Of a stretch of DNA of 64,000 bases, positions 1 to 56,249 are shown piece by piece. The DNA is from Candidatus Doudnabacteria bacterium (GTDB lineage: Bacteria > Patescibacteriota > Doudnabacteria > UBA920): the NCBI GenBank assembly GCA_038203095.1, contig JBBREH010000001.1:431-64430 (forward strand), in the 5' to 3' direction. The notes below the pieces were generated by a model, which made no database searches, had not been told where the DNA came from, and worked only from the letters and a program-made list of their open reading frames with translations. The position numbers and the translations under genes were made by a program. How positions within the stretch are numbered: the stretch's first letter is position 1; every line of letters starts with the position of its first letter.

Positions 1-158
1 CGGGCGGATGAGATCCGCCCCTACACCTAGAGCCATATATTCTATACGACCCTAAATTCCATGTGATCAGATCCTCAACCTCTCGGATGTCAGCCAGAGA
101 CGGATATTCCTCTGGTACGACACTCAGGGCTCAGGATGATGCCAAATTATAAAGTTTA

Positions 159-319
159 GGACTTACGCCTTTCATCTAAATATTTAAAATATTGATGAAA
201 CCCACAAGGGGTTTGGTCGATTACTTCGTTATTTTGTTGTGGTTTTTGTCGACGTAGATAAACTATGCCTCCAAAAATCCTCACAAAATGCCTCGTACTC
301 GACCAAAGGCGTAAGTCCT
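159..319. repeat. Nested inverted-repeat element (about 160 nt)
   Basis: Outer 15-bp inverted repeat GGACTTACGCCTTTC (159..174) and AAAGGCGTAAGTCC (305..319). Inner TTTGGTCGA (212..220) and TCGACCAAA (299..307). Confidence 0.6.
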
Positions 320-433
320 GAAGTTATTACTTTGGAAGAGTTTTATCCACGCCATCTGCGTTAATCTGCGCATACAGATCCCTCGGATGTACTCGGGATG
401 AAAATTATAAAATAATTGGCTATTAAATAATTT

Positions 434-2080: not shown

Positions 2081-3007
2081 ATGCCTGAACTGCCAGAAGT
2101 TCAAACTATAGTTAGCGAGCTTAATAGGAAATTAAAAAACCGAACTATAAAGTCGGTTGATGTTTTCGCGCCCAAAATGGTTGGGGTGGGTTCGGCGACG
2201 CTCTCTCCTAAAAGAACAGCCTCCGCCCAAACAGTAGAAAAATTTAAAATGCTGATAACTGGCAAAAGGTTTTTATCAGTACGCCGTCGCGCCAAGCTTT
2301 TAATTTTTAAGTTGTCGGGAGAGCTTTTTATGCTTGTTCATCTTAAAATGACCGGACAATTTATTTTTGAAGATAAAGTTTTGCGGGGCAAAACTTTAGG
2401 GAAATATCGGCTTTTGAATAAACTTAATGCGCCGTTAGTTCAGCTACCTTGCAAGCATACGCATGTGATTTTTAATTTTGTCGATCAGACAAAATTATAT
2501 TTTAACGATGTCCGCAAGTTCGGTTATTTAAAGTTGGTGCGCGTTGATGAAATATCCTCTGTTCGTGAACTAAACGAATACGGTCCTGAGCCGTTGGGTA
2601 AATATTTTACCGCCGGACACTTTTTGACGGCCGTCAAAAAGTGTCCGGACAGAAAAATCAAACAAATAATTATGGATAATAAAATTGTGGTGGGGATAGG
2701 CAATATTTACAGCGACGAAATTTTATTTCATGCCGGGGTCCGGCCGACGCGCTTGGTTAAATTACTGTCCGATGTTGAAATTAGCAGTATTTATAAATGG
2801 ATAAAGCCGGTATTAATAAAAGGCATAAAAGCCAAAGGTTCCAGCGTTGGCGACTTTGTCCGTACCGACGGCACCTGGGGCCAAATGGGCAAATTTCACT
2901 TTGTCTACGGACGTAGGGGGCAGAAATGCAAAAAATGTGGTACGACCATCGAATCAGTTAAGCTGGGCGGTCACACAGCTAGTTATTGCCCAAGATGTCA
3001 AGTGTAG
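2081..3007 (+). CDS. fpg: Formamidopyrimidine-DNA glycosylase (Fpg/Nei family)
   Basis: Starts MPELPEV (catalytic Pro2 after Met removal), so the true start is the ATG at 2081 rather than the ORF-track start. C-terminal zinc finger CPRCQ. Confidence 0.8.
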   Translation: MPELPEVQTIVSELNRKLKNRTIKSVDVFAPKMVGVGSATLSPKRTASAQTVEKFKMLITGKRFLSVRRRAKLLIFKLSGELFMLVHLKMTGQFIFEDKVLRGKTLGKYRLLNKLNAPLVQLPCKHTHVIFNFVDQTKLYFNDVRKFGYLKLVRVDEISSVRELNEYGPEPLGKYFTAGHFLTAVKKCPDRKIKQIIMDNKIVVGIGNIYSDEILFHAGVRPTRLVKLLSDVEISSIYKWIKPVLIKGIKAKGSSVGDFVRTDGTWGQMGKFHFVYGRRGQKCKKCGTTIESVKLGGHTASYCPRCQV

Positions 3008-3008
3008 A

Positions 3009-3061
3009 GTGCCCATTTATAGGCTATCTGAGACGCCGATGAATCGGCACGCTACACATAT
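3009..3061. repeat. 53-nt repeat element, copy 1 (intergenic, directly after the fpg stop)
   Basis: About 83 percent identical to 22366..22418. Contains a GCCGAT..ATCGGC hairpin and the shared core ATCGGCACGCTACAC. Confidence 0.7.
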
Positions 3062-3586: not shown

Positions 3587-3705
3587 ATCTGCGAATGGAA
3601 CGAATCAACGAATAACTGCGAATCTGCGAATCTGCGAATCTGCGAATCTGCGAATTCGTCGATTCGTAGAATATTCGCAGATTCGTCTAATTCGTAAATT
3701 CGATA
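3587..3705. repeat. Tandem 8-mer (CTGCGAAT x5) embedded in a ~120-nt imperfect palindrome
   Basis: Five direct CTGCGAAT copies at 3616..3655. Left arm is rich in CGAAT units and right arm in ATTCG units, centred on GAATTC. Confidence 0.8.
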
Positions 3706-3710
3706 AATTT

Positions 3711-8563: not shown

Positions 8564-9342
8564 ACTTGGTCACGTAAAAAAACGTGTGTTTTGCATCTTA
8601 AAAATTCAATATTTAAGCAGTGTGTTTTTGCAGGAGAACATACGACTTTTATACATACCCTTACACCAATCTTCGCCAGAGCGATAAGCAATTACAGTAA
8701 AGTTGACCACATTATAAAGCGACTGATTATTTTAACGAGCATAAGTTTTGTTGGAGATTGGCGTGAGGGTATTATTCACAGATACGTAGAAGGGAACAGA
8801 TTGCACAGATAAATTATCTGCGTCATCTGTATTAATCTGCGCATCCGCGATCTCATGCTCCTAATTTCGTTAACCCGGATTGGGGGCGCTAGAGCCTGTT
8901 TAATAAATTGCTTTCGAAGCGAAATTTCAGAATTTTGAGCGAAAAACTTAAAGAAAAGCGAGGCGACACCAGGGCGTGTCGGTGAGCTTTGATGAAAGTT
9001 TTGCAGCCAAAATTCTGAAATTGCAGCCGAAATGAATTTATTGAACGGGCTCATACTAAAGCCGTATACTAAAGTACTAGAATAATATTACTATGATTCT
9101 CCTGTACTCAAGTCTACGGTTTTTAATTTTTACAAAAGTTTTGAGCTTGTATAGTTTTGCTTGTTTGCTACAAAATTAATTCTAAACATTTTCGTAGTCA
9201 TTTGTAGTGTGCTGATTTTGTAGATTTGTAGTTTGTTTCTGCAAACGTGGGCCATAAGGAGGGCAATTTATATTTTCCGTCCGAGACGGATAGGCCTTAT
9301 TACTTAGACCCACACTTGTGAAAATAAACATAGTTATTGATT

Positions 9343-16496: not shown

Positions 16497-17684
16497 ATGC
16501 CAAAAAATATCGGTCAACAAAAAAAAGTTTATACCTTTACTTCGGAATCGGTCACCGAAGGACATCCGGACAAAGTTTGCGACCAAATTAGCGACGCCAT
16601 TTACGATGAAATGCTTCGCCAGGATAAAAAGGCTCACGCGGGCATTGAATGTTTTGCAACTACGGGTTTGGTTATTGTTGGCGGAGAAGCGCGGACTAAG
16701 GCGTATGTTGATATTCAATCTATAGTCCGTCGGACACTTAAAAGAATTGGTTATGACAAGCCCGAGTATGGTTTTTGCTCAACAGATGTAGGCGTAATTA
16801 GTACTTTACACGAGCAGTCGCCGGACATTGCCCAGGGAGTAGACGAAGGCAAGGGCGAGTTTAAAGAACAAGGCGCGGGAGACCAGGGGCTTATGTTTGG
16901 CTTTGCCTGCGACGAAACCAAAGAGTTAATGCCGTTGCCAATATCGTTGGCACATCGCTTGGCGCGCAAATTGGCCGAAGTGCGCAAAAACGGCAAGTTG
17001 CCGTATTTAAGACCCGATGGCAAAACTCAGGTAAGTATGCAGTATGTAGACGGCAAACCTAAAGCCGTAATGAACGTTGTGGTAGCTGCGCATCATAGCG
17101 AAGACGTTACAACGGAAAAATTAAGAAGTGAGATTAAAAAATTTGTCATTGAGCCGGTTTTGGGCAAGTGGTTAAAAAAGGACACACAAATTTTTATTAA
17201 TTCCACCGGCCGGTTTGTGCTGGGCGGTCCGCCGGCAGACGCGGGACTTACCGGACGCAAAATTATTGTAGACACTTACGGCGGTTACGCGCCCCATGGC
17301 GGGGGAGCTTTTAGCGGCAAGTGTGTAACTAAAGTTGACCGTTCAGCCGCTTACGCCGCCCGCTACATTGCCAAAAATATTGTCGCTTCCGGTCTATCTA
17401 AAAAATGCTTGGTTCAACTGGCGTACGCCATTGGTGTGGCCAAGCCGGTGTCGGTTATGGTGGATACTTCCGGCACGGGAAAAATTTCCGATGTCCGTTT
17501 AGGTGAAATTGTCGAGCAAATTTTCCCCATCAAGCCCGCGGACATTATTCGCCAACTTAACCTGGAACGCCCGATTTACGAACAAACCGCGGCCTATGGC
17601 CATTTTGGGAGAACCGATATTAAAGTGCCTTGGGAGAAGACGGATAAGATTAGGCAGTTAAGAGTCCTGGCTAAAAAGAAATAA
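16497..17684 (+). CDS. metK: S-adenosylmethionine synthetase
   Basis: [14 protein letters not shown] and GGGAFSGK motifs. ATG at 16497; the track start at 16443 lies inside the riboswitch. Confidence 0.9.
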
Positions 17685-19211: not shown

Positions 19212-19223
19212 TTAGTATATTTT

Positions 19224-19357
19224 ATGGACAGAAATTTAGTTTTAGAATTTGTGAGGGTAAATCCCCTTGAAGGCAGCCATCGAGGGATCGATTAAAGTGC
19301 CTTGGGAATGGACGGATAAAATTAGACAACTTAGGAACCTTGCCAAGCAAAAACGCT
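19224..19357 (+). pseudogene. Decayed gene fragments: glpX 5' end (about 38 nt) followed by metK 3' end (about 75 nt)
   Basis: 19224..19261 is about 87 percent identical to glpX 23906..23943 (MDRNLVLEFVRV). 19283..19357 is about 75 percent identical to metK 17613..17687 ([17 protein letters not shown]). Confidence 0.65.
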
Positions 19358-20374: not shown

Positions 20375-22084
20375 ATGCAAAAAATGGTGATTAAGGTTGT
20401 AAAGATTATTATTGCCACAGCAATTTTTGCCTGGTTTGGTCTATTTTTGGCGCATAAAATAGATTTAACCACCGCGGATTTAGGCCGGCATATTGTTAAT
20501 GGATCGATAATTTTACACGGATCTTGGGCAGAGAAGTGGGCCGTGCTTAATACCAATTTTTATTCTTATACCTTACCTAATCAGCCATTTGTTAACCATC
20601 ACTGGGGGAGTGGAGTGGTTTTTTATTTAATTTTTTTGGCATTTGGATTTGCGGGGTTGTCTGTATTTTATGTAGGTTTGGGATTGGCGACGTTGTGGTT
20701 ATTTTTTGACGTAGCCAGAAGAGCGAGCAATTTTTGGATATCGTCTGCTGTGACAATTTCTCTAATCCCGTTGCTTTCGGCTCGCGCCGAAGTTCGTCCG
20801 GAAATGTTTACCTATTTTTTTACGGGAGTATTTTTTTGGGTGCTGTGGAAATCGCGGAATGACGCGGAACTTAACGCTGAAAGACGCGGAAGCTATAAGT
20901 TGCTCTGGATTTTGCCTATAATTGTTCTGCTTTGGGTTAATTTGCATATTGGTTTTGTGTTTGGGTTTTTGGTGCTGGGGGCGTTTGGATTGGAAGAAAT
21001 AATAAGGAATTTTCCATTCCGAATGCATCTGAGGAATCTGTTAAATCCAGGAACAGACAGATCCCTCCGTTCGCCCTCGGATGCACTCGGTCTTGGTTGG
21101 GATGGCAAATTACAAAAACTGATTATCATATCGGCGCTTTGCATTCTCGCAGGCTTAATAAATCCTTTTGGCTATAAACTGTTAATTTACCCCGCGCAAA
21201 TTTTTAAGAATTACGGTTATTTGATTGTAGAAAATCAATCCATCCGTTTTTTGGAGCGTCTAAATTTTGTTCAAGGCCAACACTTTTTACTTTTTAAACT
21301 GGCCGTGGCCGGGGTCATTATCAGTTTTATCGGAGTTGCCATAAGGTGGTGGAGAAAGATTGATATCACGATGTTGGTATTAGTCATAATCACAGCCTTT
21401 ATGGCTTATTTGGGAATTCGTAATTTTCCGTCTTTCGCGTTTTTCGCCTTGCCGGCCGCGGCCGGAAATTTGTATTTAATTAAACCGCAAAATCTTCATC
21501 GCGCGTACAAGTATTCGCTGTCAGTTATTCTTATTTTTATTGTAATTATTTGCGCCCAATCCCAGTACCAAACTTTTATGGAAATCAGGCCTGTTTTAGG
21601 TTTTGGTGTTTTGCCCGGTGTTAACCAGTCGGCTGATTTTTACAAGGCTAATAATCTTAAAGGTCCTATATTTAACAATTATGACGTTGGCGGATATTTA
21701 ATTTATCATTTATATCAAAAAAATCACCCCCTCCTAGCCTCCCCCATCAAGGGGGAGGAAGGGGGCACGGACACAAAGCTCTTTGTGGACAACAGGCCGG
21801 AAGCTTATACAACTGATTTTTTTGAAAATTCCTACAAACTGCCGCAAACGGACAGCCAAAAATGGCAGGAACTTGATAACCGGTATAATTTTAACTCCAT
21901 CTTTTTTTCCCACCGCGACTATACCCCGTGGGGTCAGGCGTTTTTAATTTCGCGAATACAGGATCCCACTTGGGCGCCGGTGTTTGTAGACACGTACAAT
22001 ATAATCTTTGTAAAAAGAAACCCACAGAACGCGGATTTAATTAAAAAATATGAACTACCAAAAAGTATGTTTGGCATTAAATAA
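20375..22084 (+). CDS. Polytopic membrane protein, candidate GT-C-type glycosyltransferase
   Basis: At least 12 predicted TM helices, immediately upstream of a Dpm1-like GT2. Contains two in-frame repeat-element insertions (21024..21091, 21724..21765). Confidence 0.45.
   Translation: MQKMVIKVVKIIIATAIFAWFGLFLAHKIDLTTADLGRHIVNGSIILHGSWAEKWAVLNTNFYSYTLPNQPFVNHHWGSGVVFYLIFLAFGFAGLSVFYVGLGLATLWLFFDVARRASNFWISSAVTISLIPLLSARAEVRPEMFTYFFTGVFFWVLWKSRNDAELNAERRGSYKLLWILPIIVLLWVNLHIGFVFGFLVLGAFGLEEIIRNFPFRMHLRNLLNPGTDRSLRSPSDALGLGWDGKLQKLIIISALCILAGLINPFGYKLLIYPAQIFKNYGYLIVENQSIRFLERLNFVQGQHFLLFKLAVAGVIISFIGVAIRWWRKIDITMLVLVIITAFMAYLGIRNFPSFAFFALPAAAGNLYLIKPQNLHRAYKYSLSVILIFIVIICAQSQYQTFMEIRPVLGFGVLPGVNQSADFYKANNLKGPIFNNYDVGGYLIYHLYQKNHPLLASPIKGEEGGTDTKLFVDNRPEAYTTDFFENSYKLPQTDSQKWQELDNRYNFNSIFFSHRDYTPWGQAFLISRIQDPTWAPVFVDTYNIIFVKRNPQNADLIKKYELPKSMFGIK
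21724..21765. repeat. G/C-rich palindromic element (in-frame inside the membrane-protein CDS, opposite orientation)
   Basis: CACCCCCTCCTAGCCTCCCCCATCAAGGGGGAGGAAGGGGG; encodes HPLLASPIKGEEGG. Confidence 0.65.
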
Positions 22085-22200
22085 TTGACAAGATTGAGCA
22101 AGATTTTCATGCCAGAGGCAGATCCACCTTCGGCGGAAAATGATTGACAACATTGGAATGCAATTGTCTTTATAATCTTTTAAATCATGTTAATCAACTT

Positions 22201-22932
22201 ATGAAGCTGTCAATAATCATCCCAGCGCACAATGAAGAAAAAACCATTGCTCAGGTTTTGGAGCAGGTTTTAAAAGTGGATTTGGACGGGTGGGAGAAAG
22301 AGGTGGTTGTGGTGGATGACGGAAGTAGTGACGGGACAGGTACTATCCTGGAAAAGATTTGTAGCGTGCCCATTTATGGGCATTCCGGATCGCCGATAAA
22401 TCGGCACGCTACACTTATTAGCCACCCCACCAATCTCGGCAAAGGCGCGGCAATAAAATCGGCTTTGGTCAAAGCCACCGGGGATTACGTAATTATTCAG
22501 GACGCGGATTTGGAGTATAATCCGGGCGATATCGTTAATCTTTTATCGTTTATCCCTGACGATGGAAAACATCGGATTGCCATTTTTGGCAAGCGCGGTT
22601 ATAAAGCTTATCCGGAGCGCGGCTTCCACTATGTTATTGGCGCGTGGTTGCTTACTACTTTTTATAACTTGCTTTATGGCCAGCAACTTACGGATCTTTA
22701 CACTGGCTACAAATTAATCCCGACACGCATTTTTAAAGAACTAAACATTGAGTCCAACGGTTTTGAATTTGAAGCCGAAGTGGCTTGTAAGCTGGTGAAA
22801 AAAAATGTTATTATAAAGGAAGTAGAAATTAGTTATTTACCCAGAAACAAAGCTCAAGGTAAACATATTCGCTTTGTTGACGCCGTGAAAGGTTTTTGGA
22901 CTATTGTTAAAATTAGGCTATTTAAGAATTGA
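22201..22932 (+). CDS. GT2 glycosyltransferase (polyprenyl-phosphate sugar synthase/Dpm1-like)
   Basis: LSIIIPAHNEE...VVVVDDGSSDGT...DADLEYNP motifs. ATG at 22201. Carries a 53-nt repeat insertion at 22366..22418. Confidence 0.75.
   Translation: MKLSIIIPAHNEEKTIAQVLEQVLKVDLDGWEKEVVVVDDGSSDGTGTILEKICSVPIYGHSGSPINRHATLISHPTNLGKGAAIKSALVKATGDYVIIQDADLEYNPGDIVNLLSFIPDDGKHRIAIFGKRGYKAYPERGFHYVIGAWLLTTFYNLLYGQQLTDLYTGYKLIPTRIFKELNIESNGFEFEAEVACKLVKKNVIIKEVEISYLPRNKAQGKHIRFVDAVKGFWTIVKIRLFKN
22366..22418. repeat. 53-nt repeat element, copy 2 (in-frame inside the GT2 CDS)
   Basis: Matches 3009..3061; encodes VPIYGHSGSPINRHATL inserted before the GKG motif of the GT2. Confidence 0.7.
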
Positions 22933-23891: not shown

Positions 23892-23905
23892 TAGTAAATA
23901 AATTT

Positions 23906-24898
23906 ATGGATAGAAATTTAGCTTTGGAATTTGTGCGGGTAACTGAGGCGGCGGCTATTGCAGCTAGTAAGTGGATAGGCAAGGGTGACGGTAAAAAGGC
24001 TGATGGCGCGGCAGTAGATGAAATGCGGTCGCGTTTTAATCAGATAGATTTTAAAGGCGTGGTGGTAATTGGTGAGGGGCAGAAAGACGAGGCGCCGGAA
24101 CTTTACACCGGGGAGAAGGTGGGACTTGGATGGAAAAACTCCAACCACCCCGGCCTTTCAGGCCACCCCTCCTTGAAAAGGAGGGGAGACTCCGTGTTTG
24201 ACCTTGCTGTTGACCCGCTTGAATGTACCGACAGCGTGGCTTATGGGCGTTATAATGCGATTGCGGTTATTGCGGCCGGAGCGCGGGGCTCGCTTTTAAG
24301 TGCGCCCGATACTTATATGGAAAAGTTGGCGGCCGGGCCAAAGGCTGCTAAAGTAATTAAAATGGGTGCGCCGGTTAAGCTAAACATTGAACGTACGGCC
24401 AAGGCTCTTGGTAAAAAAGTTGGGGATGTTACGGTGTGCATAATGGATAGAGAGCGCCATAAAGATTTAATTGGTCAGGTAAGAAAAATAGGCGCCAGAG
24501 TGCGGCTAATTACAGACGGCGACGTAGCGGGCGGGATAGCAACGTGTATGCCAGAATCGGGGATAGACCTGCTTATGGGCATTGGCGCTTCCGCAGAGGC
24601 AGTTTTGGCCGCCACAGCCATTAAAATTCTGGGTGGGCAAATATTCGCTCGCTTTAACCCAATGAAAGAAGCTCATCATCAATTGTTAAAAAAAGCCGGC
24701 CTTAACGACAAAAAAATTTACTCTGTAAACGACCTGGCCAAAGGTCAAACCCTAACCTTTACCGCCACAGGCATTATTGACGGCCCACTGCTTCAAGGGG
24801 TGAGGGTTGAGGGTAGCTACATTATAACCCATTCGATAGTAATCCGCGGTCAGAGCGGAACAATAAGATATATAACAACGCATCATAAGGAGAAATAG
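23906..24898 (+). CDS. glpX: Fructose-1,6-bisphosphatase class II (GlpX)
   Basis: Collinear with GlpX (LALEFVRVTEAAAIAA...GEGQKDEAPELYTGEKVG...DLAVDP). Carries an extra ~17 aa encoded by a palindromic element at 24149..24190. Confidence 0.85.
   Translation: MDRNLALEFVRVTEAAAIAASKWIGKGDGKKADGAAVDEMRSRFNQIDFKGVVVIGEGQKDEAPELYTGEKVGLGWKNSNHPGLSGHPSLKRRGDSVFDLAVDPLECTDSVAYGRYNAIAVIAAGARGSLLSAPDTYMEKLAAGPKAAKVIKMGAPVKLNIERTAKALGKKVGDVTVCIMDRERHKDLIGQVRKIGARVRLITDGDVAGGIATCMPESGIDLLMGIGASAEAVLAATAIKILGGQIFARFNPMKEAHHQLLKKAGLNDKKIYSVNDLAKGQTLTFTATGIIDGPLLQGVRVEGSYIITHSIVIRGQSGTIRYITTHHKEK
24149..24190. repeat. G/C-rich double hairpin inserted in-frame in glpX
   Basis: GGCC-TTTCA-GGCC followed by CCCCTCCTT-GAAA-AGGAGGGG; encodes PGLSGHPSLKRRGD, which is absent from E. 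coli GlpX at that point. Confidence 0.6.
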
Positions 24899-25345
24899 AA
24901 TTTTTAATTTTCAATTTGTAATTTTTAAACAATGTACAAATTTTATAATTATGAAGTATGATTTAGAGGAAAGAACGAGAAAATTTTCAAAAGAATTGAT
25001 TAGGTTTTTGAAAACGATTAAATCAAATTTAATAAACCAATCAATTATTTCTCAATTGGTTAGGTCTGCAACCAGTGTCGGAGCGAATTACTGTGAAGCG
25101 AATGCGGCTAGCTCTAAGAAAGATTTTACGAATAAAATATTTATTTGCAGGAAAGAAATTCAAGAAACAAAATATTGGTTTGAATTATTGGCAGAATCTA
25201 ATCCCGAAAGCAAAGATGAATTAAGAAAATTTTGGAAAGAAGCTCATGAATTGACGTTAATATTTAATAAAATATCAACATCTTTAAGATCAAAATTAGA
25301 AAATTGAAGAATTGTTTATAAATTAAAAATTGAAAATTAAAAATT
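24899..25345. mobile_element. IR-flanked cassette carrying a four-helix-bundle (IVS-type) protein gene, exactly between the glpX stop and the fba start
   Basis: 35-nt AT-rich inverted repeats at 24899..24933 and 25311..25345 (33/35 complementary). Confidence 0.55.
24951..25307 (+). CDS. Four-helix-bundle protein (23S rRNA intervening-sequence protein family)
   Basis: RSATSVGANYCEA...KDF..KI.ICRKEIQETKYWFELL motifs. Confidence 0.65.
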   Translation: MKYDLEERTRKFSKELIRFLKTIKSNLINQSIISQLVRSATSVGANYCEANAASSKKDFTNKIFICRKEIQETKYWFELLAESNPESKDELRKFWKEAHELTLIFNKISTSLRSKLEN

Positions 25346-27181: not shown

Positions 27182-27191
27182 GGGGAAAGGA

Positions 27192-27649
27192 GACAAGCAA
27201 ACAAGCAAACAAGGAGACAAATAAATAGCTTTAAAGATATATTTGCTTGGCAAAAGGCTCATTTATTAGCCTTGGAAGTTTACAGACTGTCAAAAAAATA
27301 TCCGAAAGACGAGTTATATGGATTGACCAGCCAAACTCGTAGAGCAGTGGTTTCTGTGGCTTCAAATTTGGTTGAAGGTTTTAAGCGAGCAGACAATAAG
27401 GAAGATTCACATTTTTGTAATATAGCTCAGGCTTCTTTAGAGGAAGTTAGATATCAGTTACTTCTGGCGAGAGATCTGGGTTATATTAGTAATCTTGAAT
27501 GTGAAAAGACGGAGCAATTATCCGAAGAAGTTTCTAAGTTGATTTATTTGTGGATGAAAAGTAAGAAATAAGTAAGCAAGGAGACAGGGAGTCAAGCAAT
27601 TAAGGATACAAGCTTAAATGCGGAGCGCTTGTTTGCTTGTTTGCTTGTC
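27192..27649. mobile_element. IR-flanked cassette carrying a second four-helix-bundle protein gene, between the LOG gene and tal
   Basis: Perfect 22-nt inverted repeats GACAAGCAAACAAGCAAACAAG at 27192..27213 and 27628..27649. Confidence 0.6.
27272..27571 (+). CDS. Four-helix-bundle protein (23S rRNA IVS protein family), start uncertain
   Basis: YGLTSQTRRAVVSVASNLVEG motif. The family-typical N-terminus (FAWQKAH) extends in frame upstream to 27182 with no ATG/GTG; only the TTG at 27272 or an ATA is available. Confidence 0.6.
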   Translation: MEVYRLSKKYPKDELYGLTSQTRRAVVSVASNLVEGFKRADNKEDSHFCNIAQASLEEVRYQLLLARDLGYISNLECEKTEQLSEEVSKLIYLWMKSKK

Positions 27650-27668
27650 CCCCTTAACATACTTTCCT

Positions 27669-28505
27669 ATGACAACAAAAATCTTTCTCGACTCAGGCGA
27701 CCCCGTTGAAACCAAACAAGCTTTAAAGTTGCTTGGGTTTTTGGACGGGCAAACTACTAATCCGTCGTTAATTGCTAAAAATCCGGCCACCAGCGGAAAA
27801 AAATTTACTGAAGATGAACTGCTAAAATTTTACCGTGGTATAGTTACAGAAGTCTCGTCGCTCATTCCAAAAGGCAGTGTTTCAATAGAAGTTTATGCGG
27901 ACAAAAATATGTTGGCAAATGAAATGCTGGCGCAGGGTAGGGAGTTTAATACTTGGATTCCGAACGCCCATATTAAATATCCGACTACGACCGAAGGTTT
28001 AAAGGCAGCTGAAATAAGCGTGAAAGAGGGAATGAGGGTAAATATGACGCTAGTTTTTAGTCAGGAGCAGGCTGCTGCAGTTTATGCCGCAACAAAAGGA
28101 GCATTGCGCGGACAAGTTTATTTGTCGCCATTCGTGGGTAGGCTGGATGACCGTGGGGAGAATGGCATGGATTTTGTTTCTAACGTCGTAAAAATGTATG
28201 AACAAGGCGACGGACATGTGGAAATTTTGTCAGCTTCAATTAGGTCAAGCGAACATATGAGAAAGGCGATTGAACAGGGTAGTGATATTATTACGGCACC
28301 GCTAAAAGTTTTAAAAGAGTGGGTAGAGGCGGGATCTTCCTCCTCCCCTCGCCAGGGGAGGATGCCCATAGGACAGGAGAGTTTGCTGCCAATTCTTTAT
28401 CAGGATATCAGCTTAAACAAGCCCTGGCAGGAATATAATTTACAGCATAATTTAACTAATGCCGGTTTGGAAAAATTTACAAGTGACTGGAATTCCTTAT
28501 TATAA
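27669..28505 (+). CDS. tal: Transaldolase (Fsa/TalC-type)
   Basis: IFLDSGDP...TTNPSL motifs. ATG at 27669. C-terminal region carries an extra segment that includes the palindromic element at 28342..28361. Confidence 0.8.
   Translation: MTTKIFLDSGDPVETKQALKLLGFLDGQTTNPSLIAKNPATSGKKFTEDELLKFYRGIVTEVSSLIPKGSVSIEVYADKNMLANEMLAQGREFNTWIPNAHIKYPTTTEGLKAAEISVKEGMRVNMTLVFSQEQAAAVYAATKGALRGQVYLSPFVGRLDDRGENGMDFVSNVVKMYEQGDGHVEILSASIRSSEHMRKAIEQGSDIITAPLKVLKEWVEAGSSSSPRQGRMPIGQESLLPILYQDISLNKPWQEYNLQHNLTNAGLEKFTSDWNSLL
28342..28361. repeat. G/C-rich hairpin inserted in-frame in the transaldolase gene
   Basis: CCTCCCC-TCGCCA-GGGGAGG within a C-terminal extra segment (SSSSPRQGRMPIG). Confidence 0.55.
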
Positions 28506-28513
28506 CATAAAAT

Positions 28514-29248
28514 CCACTTGGAAGAGGGGACACCTCTTCCAAGTGGGACTAATCTATTAATAAAGCTTGAATTTGTTTTTGTTTTTCTATTAGAGGACCG
28601 CTTTCTTCTACAAATTTTTTATAATCGTTAACCGTCTTAAATTTATCCATAATAACTCGCTTATCACAAAGGCCATCGTTTCTTTTTTCAATGTAATCCG
28701 AATAACTACTAAAGGCATATTCATCCGGAGTTTTTACAATCCCGGCCACAGTTGGGTTTTGATGAATATAGGCCGAAAGCCAAGTTAAATAAGATTCATT
28801 TTCTACCGGTATGGCTTTGAATGCTCCTTGAAATAAATGGCCCACATGGTCGTATTTTTTTTGAAAGTAGACTGCGTAGCCGGTGCATAGTTTTTGGATC
28901 AGTTTGCTAATTTTAATTTCGTTGTTTTGTCTTATTAATAAATGAAAATGGTTAGGCATAAGACAATAGCAGATTAAAGAAAATGCATCTGTAGGCAATT
29001 GCTTTCTTTTGTATTTTATATCAAGAGAGCTTGGGCTAACTTCCAATTCATTTTCTGGGAATAAATTTTCTCTTAATCGATGAATAAAAATTCCATAATC
29101 TTGGGGATCAAAAAAAATATCATTTTTACCATTACCTCGATTAAAGACATGATAATAATTTCCCGCAGTAAAAGTTTTGTAATCACGATAACGCATAATC
29201 ATATTATACCATAAAATTAACTTGGAAGAGGGGACACCTCTTCCAGTT
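28514..29248. mobile_element. IS200/IS605-like or RAYT-like unit: Y1 transposase flanked by near-identical palindromic hairpins
   Basis: CCACTTGGAAGAGG-GGACA-CCTCTTCCAAGTGG at 28514..28547 and AACTTGGAAGAGG-GGACA-CCTCTTCCAGTT at 29219..29248; 40 nt from tRNA-Pro. Confidence 0.6.
28549..29202 (-). CDS. HUH-Y1 transposase (IS200-like / REP-associated tyrosine transposase-like)
   Basis: YHVFNRGN..IFFDPQDY; HUH motif in LMPNHFHLLI; downstream Tyr (YIHQNP). Probable start at M68 of the track ORF, because the upstream part overlaps tRNA-Pro. Confidence 0.65.
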   Translation of the reverse strand: MIMRYRDYKTFTAGNYYHVFNRGNGKNDIFFDPQDYGIFIHRLRENLFPENELEVSPSSLDIKYKRKQLPTDAFSLICYCLMPNHFHLLIRQNNEIKISKLIQKLCTGYAVYFQKKYDHVGHLFQGAFKAIPVENESYLTWLSAYIHQNPTVAGIVKTPDEYAFSSYSDYIEKRNDGLCDKRVIMDKFKTVNDYKKFVEESGPLIEKQKQIQALLID

Positions 29249-29288
29249 GTGCAAGTTGGTTGGAAATGGTACACTTTATCAAGTATTT

Positions 29289-29362
29289 CGGGCTGTAGTA
29301 TACCGGTAGTACGTCTGCTTTGGGAGCAGATAGACTGGGTTCGATTCCCAGCAGCCCGACCA
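29289..29362 (+). tRNA. tRNA-Pro (anticodon TGG), CCA encoded
   Basis: Acceptor CGGGCTG/CAGCCCG; anticodon stem TCTGC/GCAGA with loop TTTGGGA; T-arm CTGGG-TTCGATT-CCCAG. Confidence 0.8.
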
Positions 29363-29424
29363 TGAGCCGCTCTCAGTCTAAGGCGAATTCGGGTTGAAAG
29401 CACGACGATTCAACCAAAATCTTT

Positions 29425-30007: not shown

Positions 30008-33000
30008 ATGCAAAATTCTGTCGCAAAGAAAATCTTTGCAGTAGGATCCGCGGTTGCTATGACATTGTCATTGGTAGTCCCGTTTGCGGCTCAAGCCGCG
30101 GCGCACGCTACCGGTACCAATGTCTCCAGCTCTGACGGCACTGTGTGGATGGTTACATCTACCGGTACCCGCCGCGCCTACACTTCCGCCGGCGCCTTCC
30201 TCTCCTATGGATTTAACTCCTGGAGCCAGGTTGTTCCCGCCAGCGCCGAAGATCTAGCCTTACCGGTTGATTCTGCCGGATTCATCCCCCCGCAAGACGG
30301 CACCATCTTTTGCGCCACTGCCACTAAAGGCTCTGACGTCAAAGGTGAATGTGCTTTAATTTCCGGCGGTATGAAGCGCTCATTCACATCAGCCTCGGTC
30401 TTTACCGGCCTTGGTTTTAGCTTCGCCCGCGCCGTAAACGGAGATTCCTCCTTTATGAGCAAAGGCGCCAATGTTGACAACAGCACCATGGCTCATTTGC
30501 CTGGCGTACTTGTTAACAACAACGGCACCGTCCAGTTAGTCGGCTCAAACGGCTTGCTAGGCGTACCGGATTTAGCCACCTTCAATTCCTGGGGCTATTC
30601 CTTTGCCAACGTTGTCCCGGCTAACGCCGCCGACAAAGCCATGACCCAAACCGGCGTTATGGTTGCCCGTTTGGCCGGACAATTGTCCCCAAGCTGGACA
30701 CCAGCCCAACCATGCACCAGCAACTGCACTCCTCCTCCTGCTAACGGTGGTGGTTTGAGTGTTTCTTTGAGCTCTGCTACTCCTGCCGCTTCTAACGTAG
30801 CTGCCGGAGCTGCCTTTATTCCTTTTACTGCCATCAACTTTACCGCAGCCGGCAACCCGGTTGTAGTAACCGGCGTAAAAGTTAAAAGAGGCGGACTTGG
30901 CGCCGACAGCAACCTGAACAATATGTATTTGTTCAACGGTGCTCAAATGTTAGCTCAGTCTTCTTCTGTTCAAAATGGCGTAGTCACTTATTCCAACAGC
31001 GCAGGTTTGTTCACGGTTCCCGCGAACAGCACCTTAACTATTTGGGTTAAGGGTGACTTGTCTTCCGGCACATCCAGCGGTTTAACCTATACATTTAGTG
31101 TTAACGCCGCTTCGGACATTACCTCCAATGCTTCCAGCGTTAGCGGTTCTTTCCCAATTACCGGTAATATGGTTACCAGCGCAACTGTTGTCTCGCCTTC
31201 TTTGGCGAGTTTGACCGTTGCCGGTATTTCCACAGGTGGCACGGTTAACGCCGGCACCAACAGCTTCTTGGCCGCCCAATATTCTTTACAGTCTGCCAAC
31301 AGCTCTGTAAAAGTAAACGGTATTACATTAACTTTTGTCGGCTCCGCGGCGCTTTCCAGCATTGCGAACGTCAAGTTAATGGCCAACGGCACACAGGTCG
31401 GTTCTACTATGACCAGCCTCTCCAGCACAGTTGTATTCTTTGATTTGTCTTCGGCTCCTTTAATGGTGCCAACAGGCAACACTGTCAACTTGCAGGTAAT
31501 TGCCGATATTACCGGTAGCGCCAACAGAACAGGCAACCTGTTCTCCATTCAGCGCAACTATGATATCCAAAGCTATGACACTACCTACAACGTAGGTATT
31601 TTGTCCTCCAGCACTTTCCCTGTAAATGGCACCAGCTTCTCGATTAATGCCGGTACCTTAACGGTTAACCGCGATGTCACCAGCCGCACCACTCAAATTG
31701 CTCCTGGTCAGACAAACCTCACTTTGGCTACATTTTCATTCCAGGCCAACGGTGAAGACGTAAAAATCTTGAACTTGCCGTTTAAAATTGCCGGCAACGG
31801 TTCCGGTAAATTGGATATCAACAATATCAAATTGGTTGATAACGCGGGTTTTGGTCTAGGCACATCTGATACCACCGAAAAGAATGTGGTAGCTACTCCC
31901 TACACCAACAGCTCTGGCGCGGTTAATGCTCCAGGTTTCCAACAGACCTCTAACTTTAATTATGTCATTCCTGCCAATACCACTCGCTTAATTAGCATTG
32001 TGGCCGACATAATTTCTAGCACTACTTCTACAACTGCTACCGCTTCTTTGACCGGTGGTTCTTCCAACGCTCAAGGCGTAGTTTCAGTTGCCAGTATTAC
32101 TACTCCTGCAGTTTCCGGTAACACTTTGACTGTTAGCACTACTTTGCTTACAGCCACTTTGAGTTCCGGTATGGCCAACCCAAGCTTGGTTGTTCCTAAC
32201 TCCCAGTCGACCAAAGTCGGTTCCTTTGCGATAAACGCAGGTGGAGCTGATTCTGTAGATATTACCACTGTGCAGGTTACTACCGGCGCGACTTCTGTTG
32301 CAGCCAACTTTAACCAATTGGCAGTTATGGTAGGTACTACTCAAGTTGGGCAAACTCAAACCACTTTGAGCAACAGCACTGCCTATAGCTTTAGCCCTGC
32401 TACGGCCATTTCTATTCCGGCCGGCGGTAGCGTGACCATAGATGTCTACGCTGGCGTTCAAAGCGGAGCTGAAACTTCGGTGAACCAAAATGTTGTGTCG
32501 TTGACAGGTCTTACTTCTCAACTACACACCAGCGGTTCCACTATTACCTTCCCGGGTCTCGTTACCGGACAGACCGTTAAGGTTACCGGCAACGGCGCTG
32601 TAACCATTACTCAAAGCCCGAACACTCCGGTGTCCAGGCAATTGGCAATGAACCAGGCTGGCCAAATCTTGGGCGTTATCAAGATTGGTGAAACTACAGG
32701 CAACGAAGCTGCCACTTTGACAGATATTACCATCACCGCCACCGGCGTTGCTGGTACTACCCTAAACGGTACTGCGTCAGCCTCTTTGAACTCCTTGCTT
32801 AACTTCACAATCTCCGCTGCCGACAATGCGGGTACAGCTATTGGTTCGCCTGTTACCAGGTCTTCTTGGACTTCAGGCACCGACGGTACCGGCACCGTGG
32901 TTTACACCGTTACCTTCAACAACGTAAGCTTAGCTATCCCGGCGGGACCTGGTAAGTATATGAACTTGACGGTTAAAGCTGACTTAAACAGCTTTACCAA

Positions 33001-33655
33001 CGGCGCGGCTTCCAACTCAATGTGGACTGTCGGTTTGGCCTCGGCTTCTGCCGCGACCATCCGCGGAACCTCTTCCACCGCAACCATTACTCCGACTTTA
33101 ACCGCCAACGCTACTTCTAATACCACAACGGTTCTTAGAACTACTATTGGCGTAGCCTCGGTTGGCTCAATTGCCAGCCCGGTTAGCGTAAGCGTTAGCC
33201 CAACCGGTGTTCCGAGCGCGACGGAAAATATGGCCATCTTTGCGGTTACTGCTTCTAACAGCGGTGACGCAATTGTGCAAAGCATTACTTTGCAACAAGG
33301 TGGTACAGCCCCAACAGGTGTTGCTGTAAACTACACAGTGTTTGACGCCGCTCAAGGCCTCTCCAGCGCTGTGAGTGTAGCTACTGCCATTACTGGTTCT
33401 ACCGCAACTGCGGTTACCCTAAACCTAAACTCCGCTGCCACTGCTGGCGGTGTGACTATTGGCGCAGGTCAAACCAAGTACTTGGTAGTCCAGGCAAACA
33501 CAACCAACTTTAACACCAACAGTGGCAACAGCTCCAAGTCTTACAGCTTGCAAGCTACCACTTGGCGCTTTAGCGACGGTACAACCGGCGTAGGCCCTTC
33601 TAGCGATGCTAGCTCGGTCACCGCAGTTACCACCGGCGCTTCCCGCACATACTAA
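30008..33655 (+). CDS. Very large secreted surface protein (candidate S-layer/adhesin), T/S/A/G/N-rich
   Basis: Signal peptide with AQAAAHA cleavage motif. N-terminal ..F.SWGY modules as in the 14174 protein. About 1000 aa of low-complexity beta-rich repeats. Minus-strand ORFs inside it are composition artefacts. Confidence 0.7.
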   Translation: MQNSVAKKIFAVGSAVAMTLSLVVPFAAQAAAHATGTNVSSSDGTVWMVTSTGTRRAYTSAGAFLSYGFNSWSQVVPASAEDLALPVDSAGFIPPQDGTIFCATATKGSDVKGECALISGGMKRSFTSASVFTGLGFSFARAVNGDSSFMSKGANVDNSTMAHLPGVLVNNNGTVQLVGSNGLLGVPDLATFNSWGYSFANVVPANAADKAMTQTGVMVARLAGQLSPSWTPAQPCTSNCTPPPANGGGLSVSLSSATPAASNVAAGAAFIPFTAINFTAAGNPVVVTGVKVKRGGLGADSNLNNMYLFNGAQMLAQSSSVQNGVVTYSNSAGLFTVPANSTLTIWVKGDLSSGTSSGLTYTFSVNAASDITSNASSVSGSFPITGNMVTSATVVSPSLASLTVAGISTGGTVNAGTNSFLAAQYSLQSANSSVKVNGITLTFVGSAALSSIANVKLMANGTQVGSTMTSLSSTVVFFDLSSAPLMVPTGNTVNLQVIADITGSANRTGNLFSIQRNYDIQSYDTTYNVGILSSSTFPVNGTSFSINAGTLTVNRDVTSRTTQIAPGQTNLTLATFSFQANGEDVKILNLPFKIAGNGSGKLDINNIKLVDNAGFGLGTSDTTEKNVVATPYTNSSGAVNAPGFQQTSNFNYVIPANTTRLISIVADIISSTTSTTATASLTGGSSNAQGVVSVASITTPAVSGNTLTVSTTLLTATLSSGMANPSLVVPNSQSTKVGSFAINAGGADSVDITTVQVTTGATSVAANFNQLAVMVGTTQVGQTQTTLSNSTAYSFSPATAISIPAGGSVTIDVYAGVQSGAETSVNQNVVSLTGLTSQLHTSGSTITFPGLVTGQTVKVTGNGAVTITQSPNTPVSRQLAMNQAGQILGVIKIGETTGNEAATLTDITITATGVAGTTLNGTASASLNSLLNFTISAADNAGTAIGSPVTRSSWTSGTDGTGTVVYTVTFNNVSLAIPAGPGKYMNLTVKADLNSFTNGAASNSMWTVGLASASAATIRGTSSTATITPTLTANATSNTTTVLRTTIGVASVGSIASPVSVSVSPTGVPSATENMAIFAVTASNSGDAIVQSITLQQGGTAPTGVAVNYTVFDAAQGLSSAVSVATAITGSTATAVTLNLNSAATAGGVTIGAGQTKYLVVQANTTNFNTNSGNSSKSYSLQATTWRFSDGTTGVGPSSDASSVTAVTTGASRTY

Positions 33656-40059: not shown

Positions 40060-42873
40060 ATGAAAATATTAAAACAGAATCATTATTATATTTTATTTGC
40101 TTCCTTGACTTTATTTGTTCTATTTCCACCCAAAGTCTCGGCAAGCAGTGTTTATTTTGCCCAGAATAACTCTACCGGCAATGTGTTTTATGAATATATT
40201 TATTTAGCGCATAACGGACATAGCTACCAAGGCGATGACAGCTCCGGTCATTCATTTGGATCCGATTTTGCAGATTATATAGCCAACTTTGCTAATGGGT
40301 CTGACTACCCTATTGCCACAACCTCCGTGACTTCCTATGTCACGGATATTATTTTGCAAATTAAAGATACTAACCTCACAGAGAACGCTGATTATGCCAT
40401 TCAGTTTGACTGTATTGGATTTGACGGTTCCTATCTCGGTGCTTTCCATTCCGCATATGTAAATTCCTCAGCTTTTTCTGATGATTTTGTTTCAGTAGAT
40501 TTCCCTTTTTCCGGCATAAACTGCGATTTAAGCAAATATCAAATACATCAAATTGTTGAGTATAGGGGCGGTCAGTCGGTTGTGCAAACTGCTATTCGAG
40601 TCCGAGCCCAAAATACTAATTCGTTAAATGGGTACGGCCTGTCCAATGATAATGGTACTATTATTGATGATTACGAACCACAGATGGTTATTAAAAGCGG
40701 ACCGCTGGTGGCAAAAACTCCGGTGTTGATTGTGCCAGGGACTTTGGGAACAGAAATAGATAAAGGTGCCGATATTCTTTGGCCAAATATAGATAAGATG
40801 TTCTCGGTGAGTCCGATTCACTCCGATGATTTTATGGATCCGTTGGCTTTTAACCAAGATGGCAGTCCTTTGAATGCAAGTTTGAGCTTAGGGCAGGTAC
40901 TAACAGTCTCAGTTCAAGCTTTTAATTATTCTCAAAAACTTCTTGAAGATTTTATTTCCCAGGGATATGCTACCGATACCAACTTGTCCCTTTTTCCCTA
41001 CGACTGGCGCGATGACATTGCTAAAAACGCAAATACTGTTTTAAGTCAAAAAATAGATCAACTGATAGCTTCTTCCGGCTCATCCAAAATTGATATTATT
41101 GCGCATAGCCAGGGCGGGTTGCTCATAAAAAAATTATTACTTGACCATCCCGAATACCAGACGAAAATTAATAAGTTAGTTTTTGTAGGTACGCCCAATT
41201 TAGGCTCGCCGAAATCTTTAAAGGTATTGATCTATGGCGATGATTTTGGTATTAAAAAATATGGTTTAGGGCTCGACCCGCTTGAAATAAAAAAAATTTC
41301 CCAAAACATGCCTTCGGTTTATCAAATGCTGCCCAGTCGGGAATATTTTAACCATTCCTCAGGTTATTTGGGGCAATATACTTTTAACTTGGATTCTAAA
41401 TCTGGCAAGATTCTCCCTACTTTTGACGAAACAAAAAATATCCTCAAAACACCTTTTTATAATTTAAACAGCAGTTTGGTTGACAGCGCCGACACTTTTC
41501 ATTCATCAGCCTTTGATAACTTTGACTTTAGCAATACCGGCATTAAGACTTTTAACATTATGGGTTGTAAATCTGCCACCATTGGTAAAATGTTTATTAA
41601 TGGAACTGGCGGAAAAGATGATATTACTTACGAGCCGGGGGATGGCACGGTGCCTTTAATTTCGGCCAGTAATATTAACGGAGCGCAGAATTTTTATGTT
41701 ACTAAAACTGGGGACATCCATGGAACTATGTTAACAACGGATGGAGTGCGTCAAAAAATAGTAAATATTATTGCCGATACCAACATTCCAACCTCCGGCC
41801 TTATTACCTCAAATCCCGCGCTTTGCGTGTTTAAAGGGAAGAAAGTAGAAGTCCATAGCCCCGTGGATTTGAATATTTACGATGAGAATAACAACCACGT
41901 TGGTCCCAACCCAGACGGCAGTTTTGACTATCAAATAGAAGGCGTGCAGTATGATGAAATTGGTCATAATAAATATGCTTTTCTGCCTGATGACGGACAT
42001 ATTTATACGCTTAAGTTAAACGCCACCGGCATGGGAAGTTTTAATTTTTATTCTTCAAGTGTAAACGGCAGTCAAACAGATAATATTGCTTATTATAGTG
42101 ATGTACTTATTGCTTCTTCTTCCACAGCCCAAGTAATCCTAAATTCTGATAACAATCAAACAATTGATTTTACCAGCGACAGCAGAACAATTGCTCCTTC
42201 CTCAATTTTAGACGCCAATCAGTCCCTTGACCCCATCTCTCCCATTTCAACCTCCACCATAACCGGTAGTTTAACTAGTCCTGGGGTTTACACTGGCAGT
42301 GTTAGTATCAGCTTGTTAGCAACTGATCCTGTTATTGTTGGCAAGGAGAACCAGACATCGGCAGTGCTTAAAACCCAATATGGTCTTGATGGGGGAGGCT
42401 ATCAAACTTACAGCACCACATCGCCGGTTAGCGTATCATCCGAAGGCCAACATAGCATAACCTTCTTCTCCACTGACCGTGCAGGTAACAATGAGCCGGA
42501 GCAGACGGTTAGTTTTGCCATCATAAAGCAGGTTGTTTCATCAGGCGACGGGGGCGGGGGAGGAGGGCCATCACAATTTAATACACCTTTTTACTTCATT
42601 ACAACACCCACAACCGCAGGCCGGGTTTTGGGCACCAGCACAACGGCTTCCATAGTTAATCCCCTAATTAGCCAGTTGCCGCCACAGCCCCAGCTCCGCC
42701 ATAAGGAAGGTAGCTTAATTGTGGACGCTAGAGGTACAGTTTACCTGGTTCAAAAGCAGTTGCTTCGTCCATTTACTTCAGCCAAACGTTTTTTGTTTTT
42801 AAAATTCAAGTTCAAAAATGTCAGCCCTATGTTAGAAGGTGACAGTGGTTATTTTTTGGGGATGCCGATGTGA
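40060..42873 (+). CDS. Large secreted alpha/beta-hydrolase (lipase/esterase-like) protein
   Basis: Signal peptide; nucleophile-elbow motif AHSQGG; long C-terminal extension with a Gly-run. Confidence 0.6.
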   Translation: MKILKQNHYYILFASLTLFVLFPPKVSASSVYFAQNNSTGNVFYEYIYLAHNGHSYQGDDSSGHSFGSDFADYIANFANGSDYPIATTSVTSYVTDIILQIKDTNLTENADYAIQFDCIGFDGSYLGAFHSAYVNSSAFSDDFVSVDFPFSGINCDLSKYQIHQIVEYRGGQSVVQTAIRVRAQNTNSLNGYGLSNDNGTIIDDYEPQMVIKSGPLVAKTPVLIVPGTLGTEIDKGADILWPNIDKMFSVSPIHSDDFMDPLAFNQDGSPLNASLSLGQVLTVSVQAFNYSQKLLEDFISQGYATDTNLSLFPYDWRDDIAKNANTVLSQKIDQLIASSGSSKIDIIAHSQGGLLIKKLLLDHPEYQTKINKLVFVGTPNLGSPKSLKVLIYGDDFGIKKYGLGLDPLEIKKISQNMPSVYQMLPSREYFNHSSGYLGQYTFNLDSKSGKILPTFDETKNILKTPFYNLNSSLVDSADTFHSSAFDNFDFSNTGIKTFNIMGCKSATIGKMFINGTGGKDDITYEPGDGTVPLISASNINGAQNFYVTKTGDIHGTMLTTDGVRQKIVNIIADTNIPTSGLITSNPALCVFKGKKVEVHSPVDLNIYDENNNHVGPNPDGSFDYQIEGVQYDEIGHNKYAFLPDDGHIYTLKLNATGMGSFNFYSSSVNGSQTDNIAYYSDVLIASSSTAQVILNSDNNQTIDFTSDSRTIAPSSILDANQSLDPISPISTSTITGSLTSPGVYTGSVSISLLATDPVIVGKENQTSAVLKTQYGLDGGGYQTYSTTSPVSVSSEGQHSITFFSTDRAGNNEPEQTVSFAIIKQVVSSGDGGGGGGPSQFNTPFYFITTPTTAGRVLGTSTTASIVNPLISQLPPQPQLRHKEGSLIVDARGTVYLVQKQLLRPFTSAKRFLFLKFKFKNVSPMLEGDSGYFLGMPM

Positions 42874-43980: not shown

Positions 43981-44105
43981 AATTTCAGATTTTAGATTGA
44001 TGATTTTAGATTGACTACATCTTATATTTTATTCTACCTTAAAATTCATTGATTTAAAAGGGTTTTTATGGTAAAGTGTTAAGGATTAAAGATTAAGGAT
44101 TAAAA

Positions 44106-56154: not shown

Positions 56155-56249
56155 GAGCGCAAATTTAATACCTATTGACACCTATTGACACCTAAAAATA
56201 CCTCTGCTATGATCGAAATAGAGGTATTTATTTATAATTTTTTCCGATT

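Follow-up and report, generated by a model that had tools for sequence, protein, structure and literature searches.

The 64,000 nucleotides from Candidatus Doudnabacteria bacterium analyzed here (the window) contain a gene for a membrane protein in whose reading frame lies a stretch resembling repeats found elsewhere in the window. This raised the question whether the stretch is a useful part of the protein, a functional structure of the nucleic acid or a copy of a dispersed repeat that happens to lie in a gene. A preliminary description of the sequence had proposed the last of these, i.e. a family of dispersed repeats of which one copy lies in frame in a gene, and this proposal was supported by our analysis. 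All strings quoted there were found at their positions, and 21024-21091 lies in frame within ORF 20375-22084, where it is translated as ...TDRSLRSPSDALGL.... The genic motif is real, yet its extent had been drawn one-sidedly: it is the core of a palindrome at 21014-21105, whose hairpin had been missed.

The host ORF had no match in Pfam. The protein has 1841 homologs, mostly from Patescibacteria, and its 569 residues compare with a usual length of about 520. An AlphaFold (AF2) model from an alignment of 119 sequences had a pLDDT of 92 and a pTM of 0.92, and Foldseek matched it to STT3, PglB, DPY19 and ArnT, i.e. to GT-C glycosyltransferases. The synteny metK - glycosyltransferase - GT2 was kept in all relatives examined. 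Alignment with 118 homologs revealed three loops with surplus residues, at about 160-173, at 214-244 and at 451-464, and reduced confidence of the AF2 model was confined to these three insert sites. Loop 2 spans 47 residues compared to a median of 22 in the homologs; its residues 214-244, which correspond to the palindrome, are surplus in alignments with most homologs, and pLDDT was 79, 70 and 50 across residues 211-240. As judged from the open frame alone, translation of the element would add about 30 residues to a loop predicted to be disordered.

Searches with ACAGATCCCTC and CCTCGGATGYACTCGG also gave hits on the minus strand, at 21031-21041 and 21019-21034, i.e. an inverted copy within the genic element. 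Thus, the genic feature is an imperfect palindrome. Its 92 nt comprise a left arm of 28 nt, a loop of 15 nt and a right arm of 49 nt (Table 1). The left arm CCATTCCGAATGCATCTGAGGAATCTGT is a shortened form of the left arm of the family, which reads TGTCATTCCGAGCGAG...CGAGGAATCCCTTAA according to the alignment of doublets and their consensus structure. The central loop varies among copies and carries tandem AGATACA-type heptamers in others. RNA folding of 21014-21105 gave z-scores of -3.1 for the plus and -4.5 for the minus strand, and the GC content was 0.54 compared to 0.41 for the whole gene. A search against Rfam yielded no match over the element at either gathering or permissive thresholds, the best being a eukaryotic miRNA model with E = 0.88; in the window two tRNAs alone reached the gathering score.

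Table 1. Coordinates of the host gene, the palindromic element with its parts and the other repeats in the window.
Feature	Positions	Strand	Sequence, basis or remarks
Probable degenerate right arm	68-140	+	CAGATCC..CTCGGATG..(nested hairpin CCAGAG..CTCTGG)..CACTCAGGGCTCAGGATGAT
Short ATCTGCG-type repeat block adjoining the solo arm	343-373	+	Repeat family D11
Solo right arm, internally deleted	374-401	+	ACAGATCCCTCGGATGTACTCGGGATGA; intergenic; weak match to the arm profile, E = 0.19
CTGCGAAT tandem array (x5), then inverted ATTCG-type units	3587-3709	+	TRF
CAGAT / ATCTG short units, palindromic, centre 8813/8814	8778-8853	+	Repeat families D6 and D11
Host gene, 569-aa multi-pass membrane protein with GT-C glycosyltransferase fold	20375-22084	+	AF2 and Foldseek; GT2 gene next to it
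Third surplus segment, CGCGGAA-type 10-mer tandem, loop 1, residues ~160-173	20853-20891	+	RNDAELNAERRG; TRF; in frame
Genic palindromic element (inverted doublet)	21014-21105	+	In frame, residues 214-244, PFRMHLRNLLNPGTDRSLRSPSDALGLGWDG
Left arm of the genic element	21014-21041	+	CCATTCCGAATGCATCTGAGGAATCTGT
Central AT-rich loop of the genic element	21042-21056	+	TAAATCCAGGAACAG
Right arm of the genic element	21057-21105	+	ACAGATCCCTCCGTTCGCCCTCGGATGCACTCGGTCTTGGTTGGGATGG
Second in-frame element, G/C hairpin, residues 451-464	21725-21765	+	HPLLASPIKGEEGG; stem CCTCCCCC/GGGGGAGG

The members of the family in the window are the genic doublet, a solo arm with an internal deletion (374-401) and, probably, a degenerate arm (68-140). 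Exact occurrences of ACAGATCCCTC were limited to positions 374 and 21057 and those of CCTCGGATGYACTCGG to 381 and 21075, while only about 0.33 and 0.21 relaxed matches, respectively, would be expected over the full 64 kb; at both places the two blocks follow each other in the same order. The exact 13-mer 'core' was by itself not significant in 64 kb. The short units gave a similar picture: 343-373 and 8814-8844 are identical at 26 of 31 positions, and the window holds 12 such pairs compared to 0-1 per sequence in 15 Markov simulations. The matches thus go beyond what base composition predicts, a point on which the preliminary description had made its proposal depend. The unit ATCTGCG occurred 10 times with 4.7 occurrences expected; all 10 were located in the non-coding 14% of the window, at only about four loci. 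Tandem arrays of 7-10 nt are abundant in the window and often form inverted pairs.

Not all of the copies listed earlier belong to the element in the same sense. The solo arm 374-401 lies 33 nt past the stop codon of a minus-strand RelA/SpoT gene (434-1942) identified by Pfam. We considered whether it is an intrinsic terminator and dropped this reading because no T-run follows it and the minus-strand fold was weak (z = -1.15). The 11 nt CGTTCGCCCTC, which had been viewed as extra in the genic copy, belong to the family consensus; it is the genic right arm that has full length and 374-401 that is shortened. The stretch at 68-95, previously taken as a copy, is part of the probable degenerate right arm 68-140, which was recognized by eye against the arm consensus. 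This arm is interrupted by the nested hairpin; it escaped the arm profile, and its fold was not significant. At 8814-8853 the claim of a copy of the same element did not hold: the surrounding module 8778-8853 shares only ATCTG-type short units with 343-373 and lacks the GC-rich arms. Likewise, the CTGCGAAT array does share ATCTGCG with the element, but this 7-mer is its only tie, and the status of the array as the same element was not borne out.

A profile of the arm detected copies in L087 and L089-L094, with a second copy in L091, i.e. in no fewer than seven further assemblies of Patescibacteria/Saccharibacteria, and the genic right arm 21057-21105 aligned to these arms without gaps (nhmmer E = 5e-16). 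The right arm of L087 shared the identical blocks GATCCCTCCG, CTCGGATGCACTCG and GGGATG with that of the window. In addition, one genome each of 185,579 species was scanned with the strict pattern ATCCCTCCGN{4,8}CTCGGATGCACTC, which specifies 22 bases. This gave 6 matches in 5 MAGs, two of them in one MAG, and four of the five MAGs were labelled Candidatus Saccharibacteria; the source genome is left out of this collection and the copy of the window was not returned. The full element had a length of about 85-142 nt with the arms TGTCATTCCGAG...GAGGAATCCCTTAA and TTAAGGGATCCCTCCG...CTCGGATGCACTCG...GGTCGGGATGACA, each of about 30-50 nt and imperfectly complementary, and between them a variable AT-rich loop, often built from short tandem units. 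The consensus of nine doublets comprised an outer stem TGTCATTCCGAG/CTCGGGATGACA and an inner stem GAGGAATCCCTTAA/TTAAGGGATCCCTC with compensatory changes at three stem positions. Doublets elsewhere folded strongly as DNA (z = -5.8 and -2.7), while the folds of solo arms were not more stable than those of shuffled sequence (z = +0.1 to +1.4). Copies differed by whole sub-hairpins and short-repeat blocks, and the earlier term 'modular' is apt.

The locations of these copies were diverse. The orthologs in L002 (P0005), L004 (P0006), L005 (P0007) and L070 had a related palindrome in loop 2 at the codon used in the window, and codon and frame (PFR/SFR...) were the same in the five orthologs that carry a loop-2 element. 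In L087 (P0087) and L088 (P0067), whose proteins are about 41-42% identical, the element was located in loop 3 instead. Other palindrome subfamilies were located in loop 2 of other homologs; that of L008, for example, had ATTGC/GCAAT stems, yet the same GAGTGCATCCGA module, and was found at the same position of this loop. Intergenic doublets were found in L090 and L092. Solo right arms occurred in L089 and in L091, where two arms flank an ABC ATPase gene and are intergenic within an operon. Furthermore, the element was in frame but in the opposite orientation in the linker of DnaX (L093) and between the HUP and PRC-barrel domains of MnmA (L094). Copies thus occur in either orientation, as inverted doublets or as solo arms. 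In viral contigs two patterns gave zero matches, so that nothing pointed to carriage by phage. A profile of the translated peptide run against 5.8 billion proteins gave 206 word-sharing candidates, none with E of 10 or below, the query being too short for a database of this size.

Next to the question of dispersal is that of which molecule is conserved. Between the window and L002 the conserved blocks of the element were identical including all third codon positions, while the flanking coding DNA was 62-64% identical and its third positions 38%. Several glycosyltransferase homologs shared the peptide RSLRS.SDAL.LG.D; in DnaX and MnmA, where the other frame and orientation are read, the peptide was SRPTASASE.ERRDPL. 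The identity at synonymous sites together with the copies in another frame or between genes indicates that it is the DNA, not the peptide, on which constraint or recency of copying acts. An adaptive insert, i.e. a peptide of about 30 residues selected for glycosyltransferase function with the likeness of the DNA being secondary, is therefore hard to reconcile with these data. The frame is open in all genic copies, and the peptide common to several homologs would be expected from such selection. Yet the same DNA lies between genes and, reversed, in another frame in DnaX and MnmA; synonymous sites are conserved, most homologs lack the segment and it is predicted to be disordered. We consider this explanation highly improbable.

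Some features of the sequences resembled each other more within than between genomes. The L002/L095 genome has a second copy at a distance of 7 kb, and both copies read CCACT and CTCAG where all other genomes have G. CAGATCC was present in 3 of 3 copies of the window compared to GGGATCC in 7 of 9 other right arms; the exceptions were the L002 ortholog with CAGATCC and L070 with GAGATCC. The copies thus show signs of homogenization within a genome.

The shared codon and frame in five orthologs could mean that loop 2 received a single ancient insertion, which was inherited vertically and whose nucleotides were kept because the hairpin functions in DNA or RNA; other copies would then have the same function elsewhere. 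Such a hairpin could be a site for protein binding or recombination, a signal for mRNA stability or processing, or a cause of translation pausing. In line with this, synonymous sites are identical in the conserved blocks of proteins that are only about 60% identical, the compensatory changes preserve pairing, and the solo arms of L091 are positioned between operon genes, where REP-like stabilizers of mRNA act. On the other hand, the carriers of the loop-2 element were scattered in a neighbor-joining tree, the nearest relative of each carrier being without the element, and many precise losses would be needed. The stem mismatches did not consistently favor either strand (on the same strand, U.G is conserved in the outer stem and A.C occurs in the inner), and orientation relative to the host gene varied, which together argues against a strand-specific RNA function. 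Solo arms had no significant fold, Rfam gave no match and the intergenic copy has no T-run, hence is no intrinsic terminator. Thus we regard an ancient functional hairpin as rather unlikely. Generation in place, by expansion and inversion of hairpin-prone tandem units through replication slippage or template switching and with no transfer between sites, would agree with the plentiful 7-10-nt arrays and their inverted pairing, with 'empty' versions of loop 2 being in-frame heptamer arrays themselves, and with the nested hairpins and duplications such as CCCTC..CCCTC that distinguish copies. It does not explain why arms of 49 nt align gap-free, with identical blocks of 14 nt, across seven or more genomes and in host genes that are unrelated, nor the conserved asymmetry of left and right arms. 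Because the arms align across genomes, a purely local origin of the GC-rich arms is largely refuted, and we judge this explanation improbable.

The remaining loops of the glycosyltransferase bear on the preliminary description as well, which had counted two different repeat insertions in the ORF. The second hairpin is indeed of another family, and the homolog alignment raised the number of surplus loops to three. At 21725-21765 the GC content was 0.69, the fold had z-scores of -2.7 and -6.7, and pLDDT was 45. This insert was 95% identical over 41 nt to positions 6123-6163 of L011, where the copy occupies another loop of a homolog with 44% identity, and a further relative was found upstream in L007. 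We concluded that the second insert is a member of a dispersed family of its own. The third surplus segment makes loop 1 28 residues long compared to a median of 21, and pLDDT falls to 80. A 17-nt exact match of this insert at 42385-42401 had no surrounding palindrome and was taken as chance or as a fragment. In other homologs these loops contained repeat-like peptides of other kinds (ADKSARY, IAS..LAMT, NPSPSRGEG and HPHLASPLKGEE). As a separate observation, several inserts of this type, from different families, are present in the window: the glycosyltransferase contains two and the neighboring GT2 gene one.

Elements of this kind are known, and the present one has relatives in other genomes, both intergenic and within further essential genes. 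The closest parallel is that of the Rickettsia palindromic elements (RPE; Ogata et al. 2000, 2002), which PMC10969869 summarizes as short palindromic repeats without coding capacity for a transposase, located between genes as well as within the reading frames of many unrelated housekeeping genes, at sites that the protein fold can accommodate. Here, too, a short palindrome without transposase occurs between genes and in frame in unrelated genes of a host-dependent bacterium with a small genome. With 92 nt in the window and 85-142 nt elsewhere and z-scores of -3.1 to -5.8, the element is mostly palindromic and roughly of the size of RPE. It was found in loops 2 and 3 of the GT-C protein, in DnaX and in MnmA as well as between genes (L089-L092 and 374-401 of the window). 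Its site in the glycosyltransferase is compatible with the fold, as pLDDT was 92 overall and 50-79 over the insert and the length of the loop varies among homologs. The differences are that the host phylum is unrelated and the elements are somewhat shorter (85-142 nt vs about 150 bp), that half elements in the form of solo arms and nested sub-hairpins occur among the copies, that at least two frames and orientations are read, while RPE yield one conserved peptide per family, and that one loop is re-used by several subfamilies. Because its host is unrelated, the element is an analogue of RPE by behavior and not a member of an RPE family.

Bacterial MITEs such as Correia/NEMIS, ERIC, RUP and Nezha are small, multicopy, non-autonomous elements with terminal inverted repeats and occasional in-frame fusions to ORFs (PMC10969869). 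The element shares with them terminal inverted repeats, a small size of 92 nt and the lack of a transposase gene. It differs in that its inverted repeats cover nearly the entire element and no cognate IS is known for it. Moreover, no target-site duplication was seen at the flanks of the nine doublets, although a very short one is possible given the uncertain boundaries; the flanks merely prolong the palindrome, tg|TCAT...ATGA|ca (ctg/cag). REP/REPIN elements, mobilized by RAYT transposases, are similar in being dispersed short palindromes with inverted doublets that form a long hairpin and with decaying singlets. Yet each REP unit is itself a hairpin and extragenic, while single arms are unfolded here (z = 0.1 to 1.4) and copies lie inside ORFs, and the REP-type reading was dropped on these grounds. 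Cyanobacterial STRR heptamers are intergenic tandem units of 7-8 nt present at many loci. Their likeness is limited to the short-unit arrays ATCTGCG / CTGCGAAT / CAGATA; units and lineage are different, and the arrays here are often inverted pairs and form the loops of palindromes. In the searchable, incomplete literature the motif strings matched primers only, and no description of palindromic or MITE elements was found for Candidate Phyla Radiation, Patescibacteria or Saccharibacteria.

Taken together, we favor the view that 21014-21105 is one member of a family of non-autonomous palindromic repeats dispersed in Patescibacteria/Saccharibacteria-like genomes, MITE- or RPE-like in kind and here tolerated in a disordered loop; this is the probable explanation. 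Such an element would colonize intergenic DNA as well as genes wherever the frame stays open and the protein accepts extra residues. Copies may arise through trans-mobilization by an enzyme, through ectopic gene conversion or through both, and new insertions, ectopic gene conversion or both would lead to concerted evolution within a genome. For the glycosyltransferase the genic copy is presumably neutral or nearly so. Some findings do not sit easily with a dispersed repeat. No target-site duplication was visible, copies are sparse, with a single doublet plus two degenerate arms in the window and six matches in the strict scan, and the one loop-2 codon shared by five orthologs is not readily expected from random insertion. 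The shared codon fits an old insertion followed by repeated losses and conversion, or a preference for the site, or a functional hairpin. One might go further and view the family not as a passive selfish repeat but as a conserved nucleic-acid module recognized by a dedicated protein of the host or of a mobile element, e.g. in recombination, DNA uptake or RNA processing. Its machinery would homogenize the copies and re-target the same loop codon, and candidate-phyla bacteria would routinely build disordered loops from intergenic repeat modules. We consider this extended reading unlikely.

To our knowledge, in-frame 'coding palindromes' have so far been treated as a peculiarity of Rickettsia. 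A dispersed palindromic repeat in Patescibacteria would mean that an unrelated family behaves alike in a further group of host-dependent bacteria that are reduced. Differences in length and 'low-complexity' segments in proteins of candidate phyla may then in many cases be repeat insertions instead of functional domains, and homology searches, phylogenies and structure prediction should be run with such segments masked. Strain typing could also use the elements as markers. Finally, since one loop codon is re-used and copies within a genome are similar, this family is a tractable case for the spread of repeats without a recognizable transposase.

The GT2 gene (22144-22932) adjoining the GT-C-fold glycosyltransferase gene carries an in-frame palindrome of its own, which is missing in three orthologs. 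Together with its copy beside the Fpg gene it is a third repeat family, behaving like the two that are inserted in frame in the glycosyltransferase gene, i.e. the GC-rich palindrome in loop 2 and the second hairpin insert. In two glycosyltransferase homologs without the GC-rich palindrome, L010 and L011, loop 2 consists of an in-frame tandem heptamer array, GATTTAAGATTTAAGATTCAAGATAAA, translated DLRFKIQDK; therefore short tandem units of the intergenic type are present in coding sequence, too.

The GC-rich palindrome has a second copy in the related genome represented by loci L002 and L095. A called ORF of 159 aa overlaps this copy with its 3' end, and the right arm of the copy contains a nested insert of 54 nt. 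At the left end of the window a 31-nt inverted repeat (142-172 / 305-335), which encloses about 130 nt, is placed between two copies, at 68-140 and at 374-401, that resemble the right arm of the palindrome. Positions 2-20 form a perfect 8-bp hairpin, and an Rfam search with window 1-340 gave no match.

Repeats and repeat-flanked genes outside the glycosyltransferase gene
Feature	Coordinates	Length, identity	Remarks
Palindrome in GT2 gene	22349-22424		In frame; VPIYGHSGSPINR
Copy of GT2-gene palindrome	3000-3061	83%	Directly 3' of Fpg gene
Second copy of GC-rich palindrome	L095 3698-3848		Minus strand
44-nt repeat	28498-28541, 29202-29245	44 nt, 93%	Includes hairpin GGAAGAGGGGACACCTCTTCC
Dispersed repeat	19221-19251 / 23903-23933	28/31 identical
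Dispersed repeat	17619-17681 / 19291-19353	63 nt, 75%
TTGACA-containing tandem units	1983-2020, 22084-22105, 56170-56194	9-10-nt units	Directly upstream of genes
Two small PF05635 ORFs and GT4 gene	24899-25345, 27186-27655, 43242-44107
Window coordinates unless a locus is named.

Both dispersed repeats are situated at gene boundaries near the Band_7 and FBPase genes. The copies of the 44-nt repeat flank ORF 28549-29403 (minus strand) and a tRNA-Pro gene. The TTGACA-containing units look like repeated -35-like boxes. As to base composition, ORF 30008-33655 (1215 aa) has a GC content of about 50% with a negative GC skew; the remaining window has about 40% GC.

Inverted arrays of 7-8-nt tandem units are found on both sides of each of the two PF05635 ORFs and of the GT4 gene. 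PF05635 is the 23S rRNA IVS protein (bAvd-like) family, and the positions of these ORFs differ among the otherwise syntenic loci L004, L005 and L095 of related assemblies. They may be mobile cassettes.
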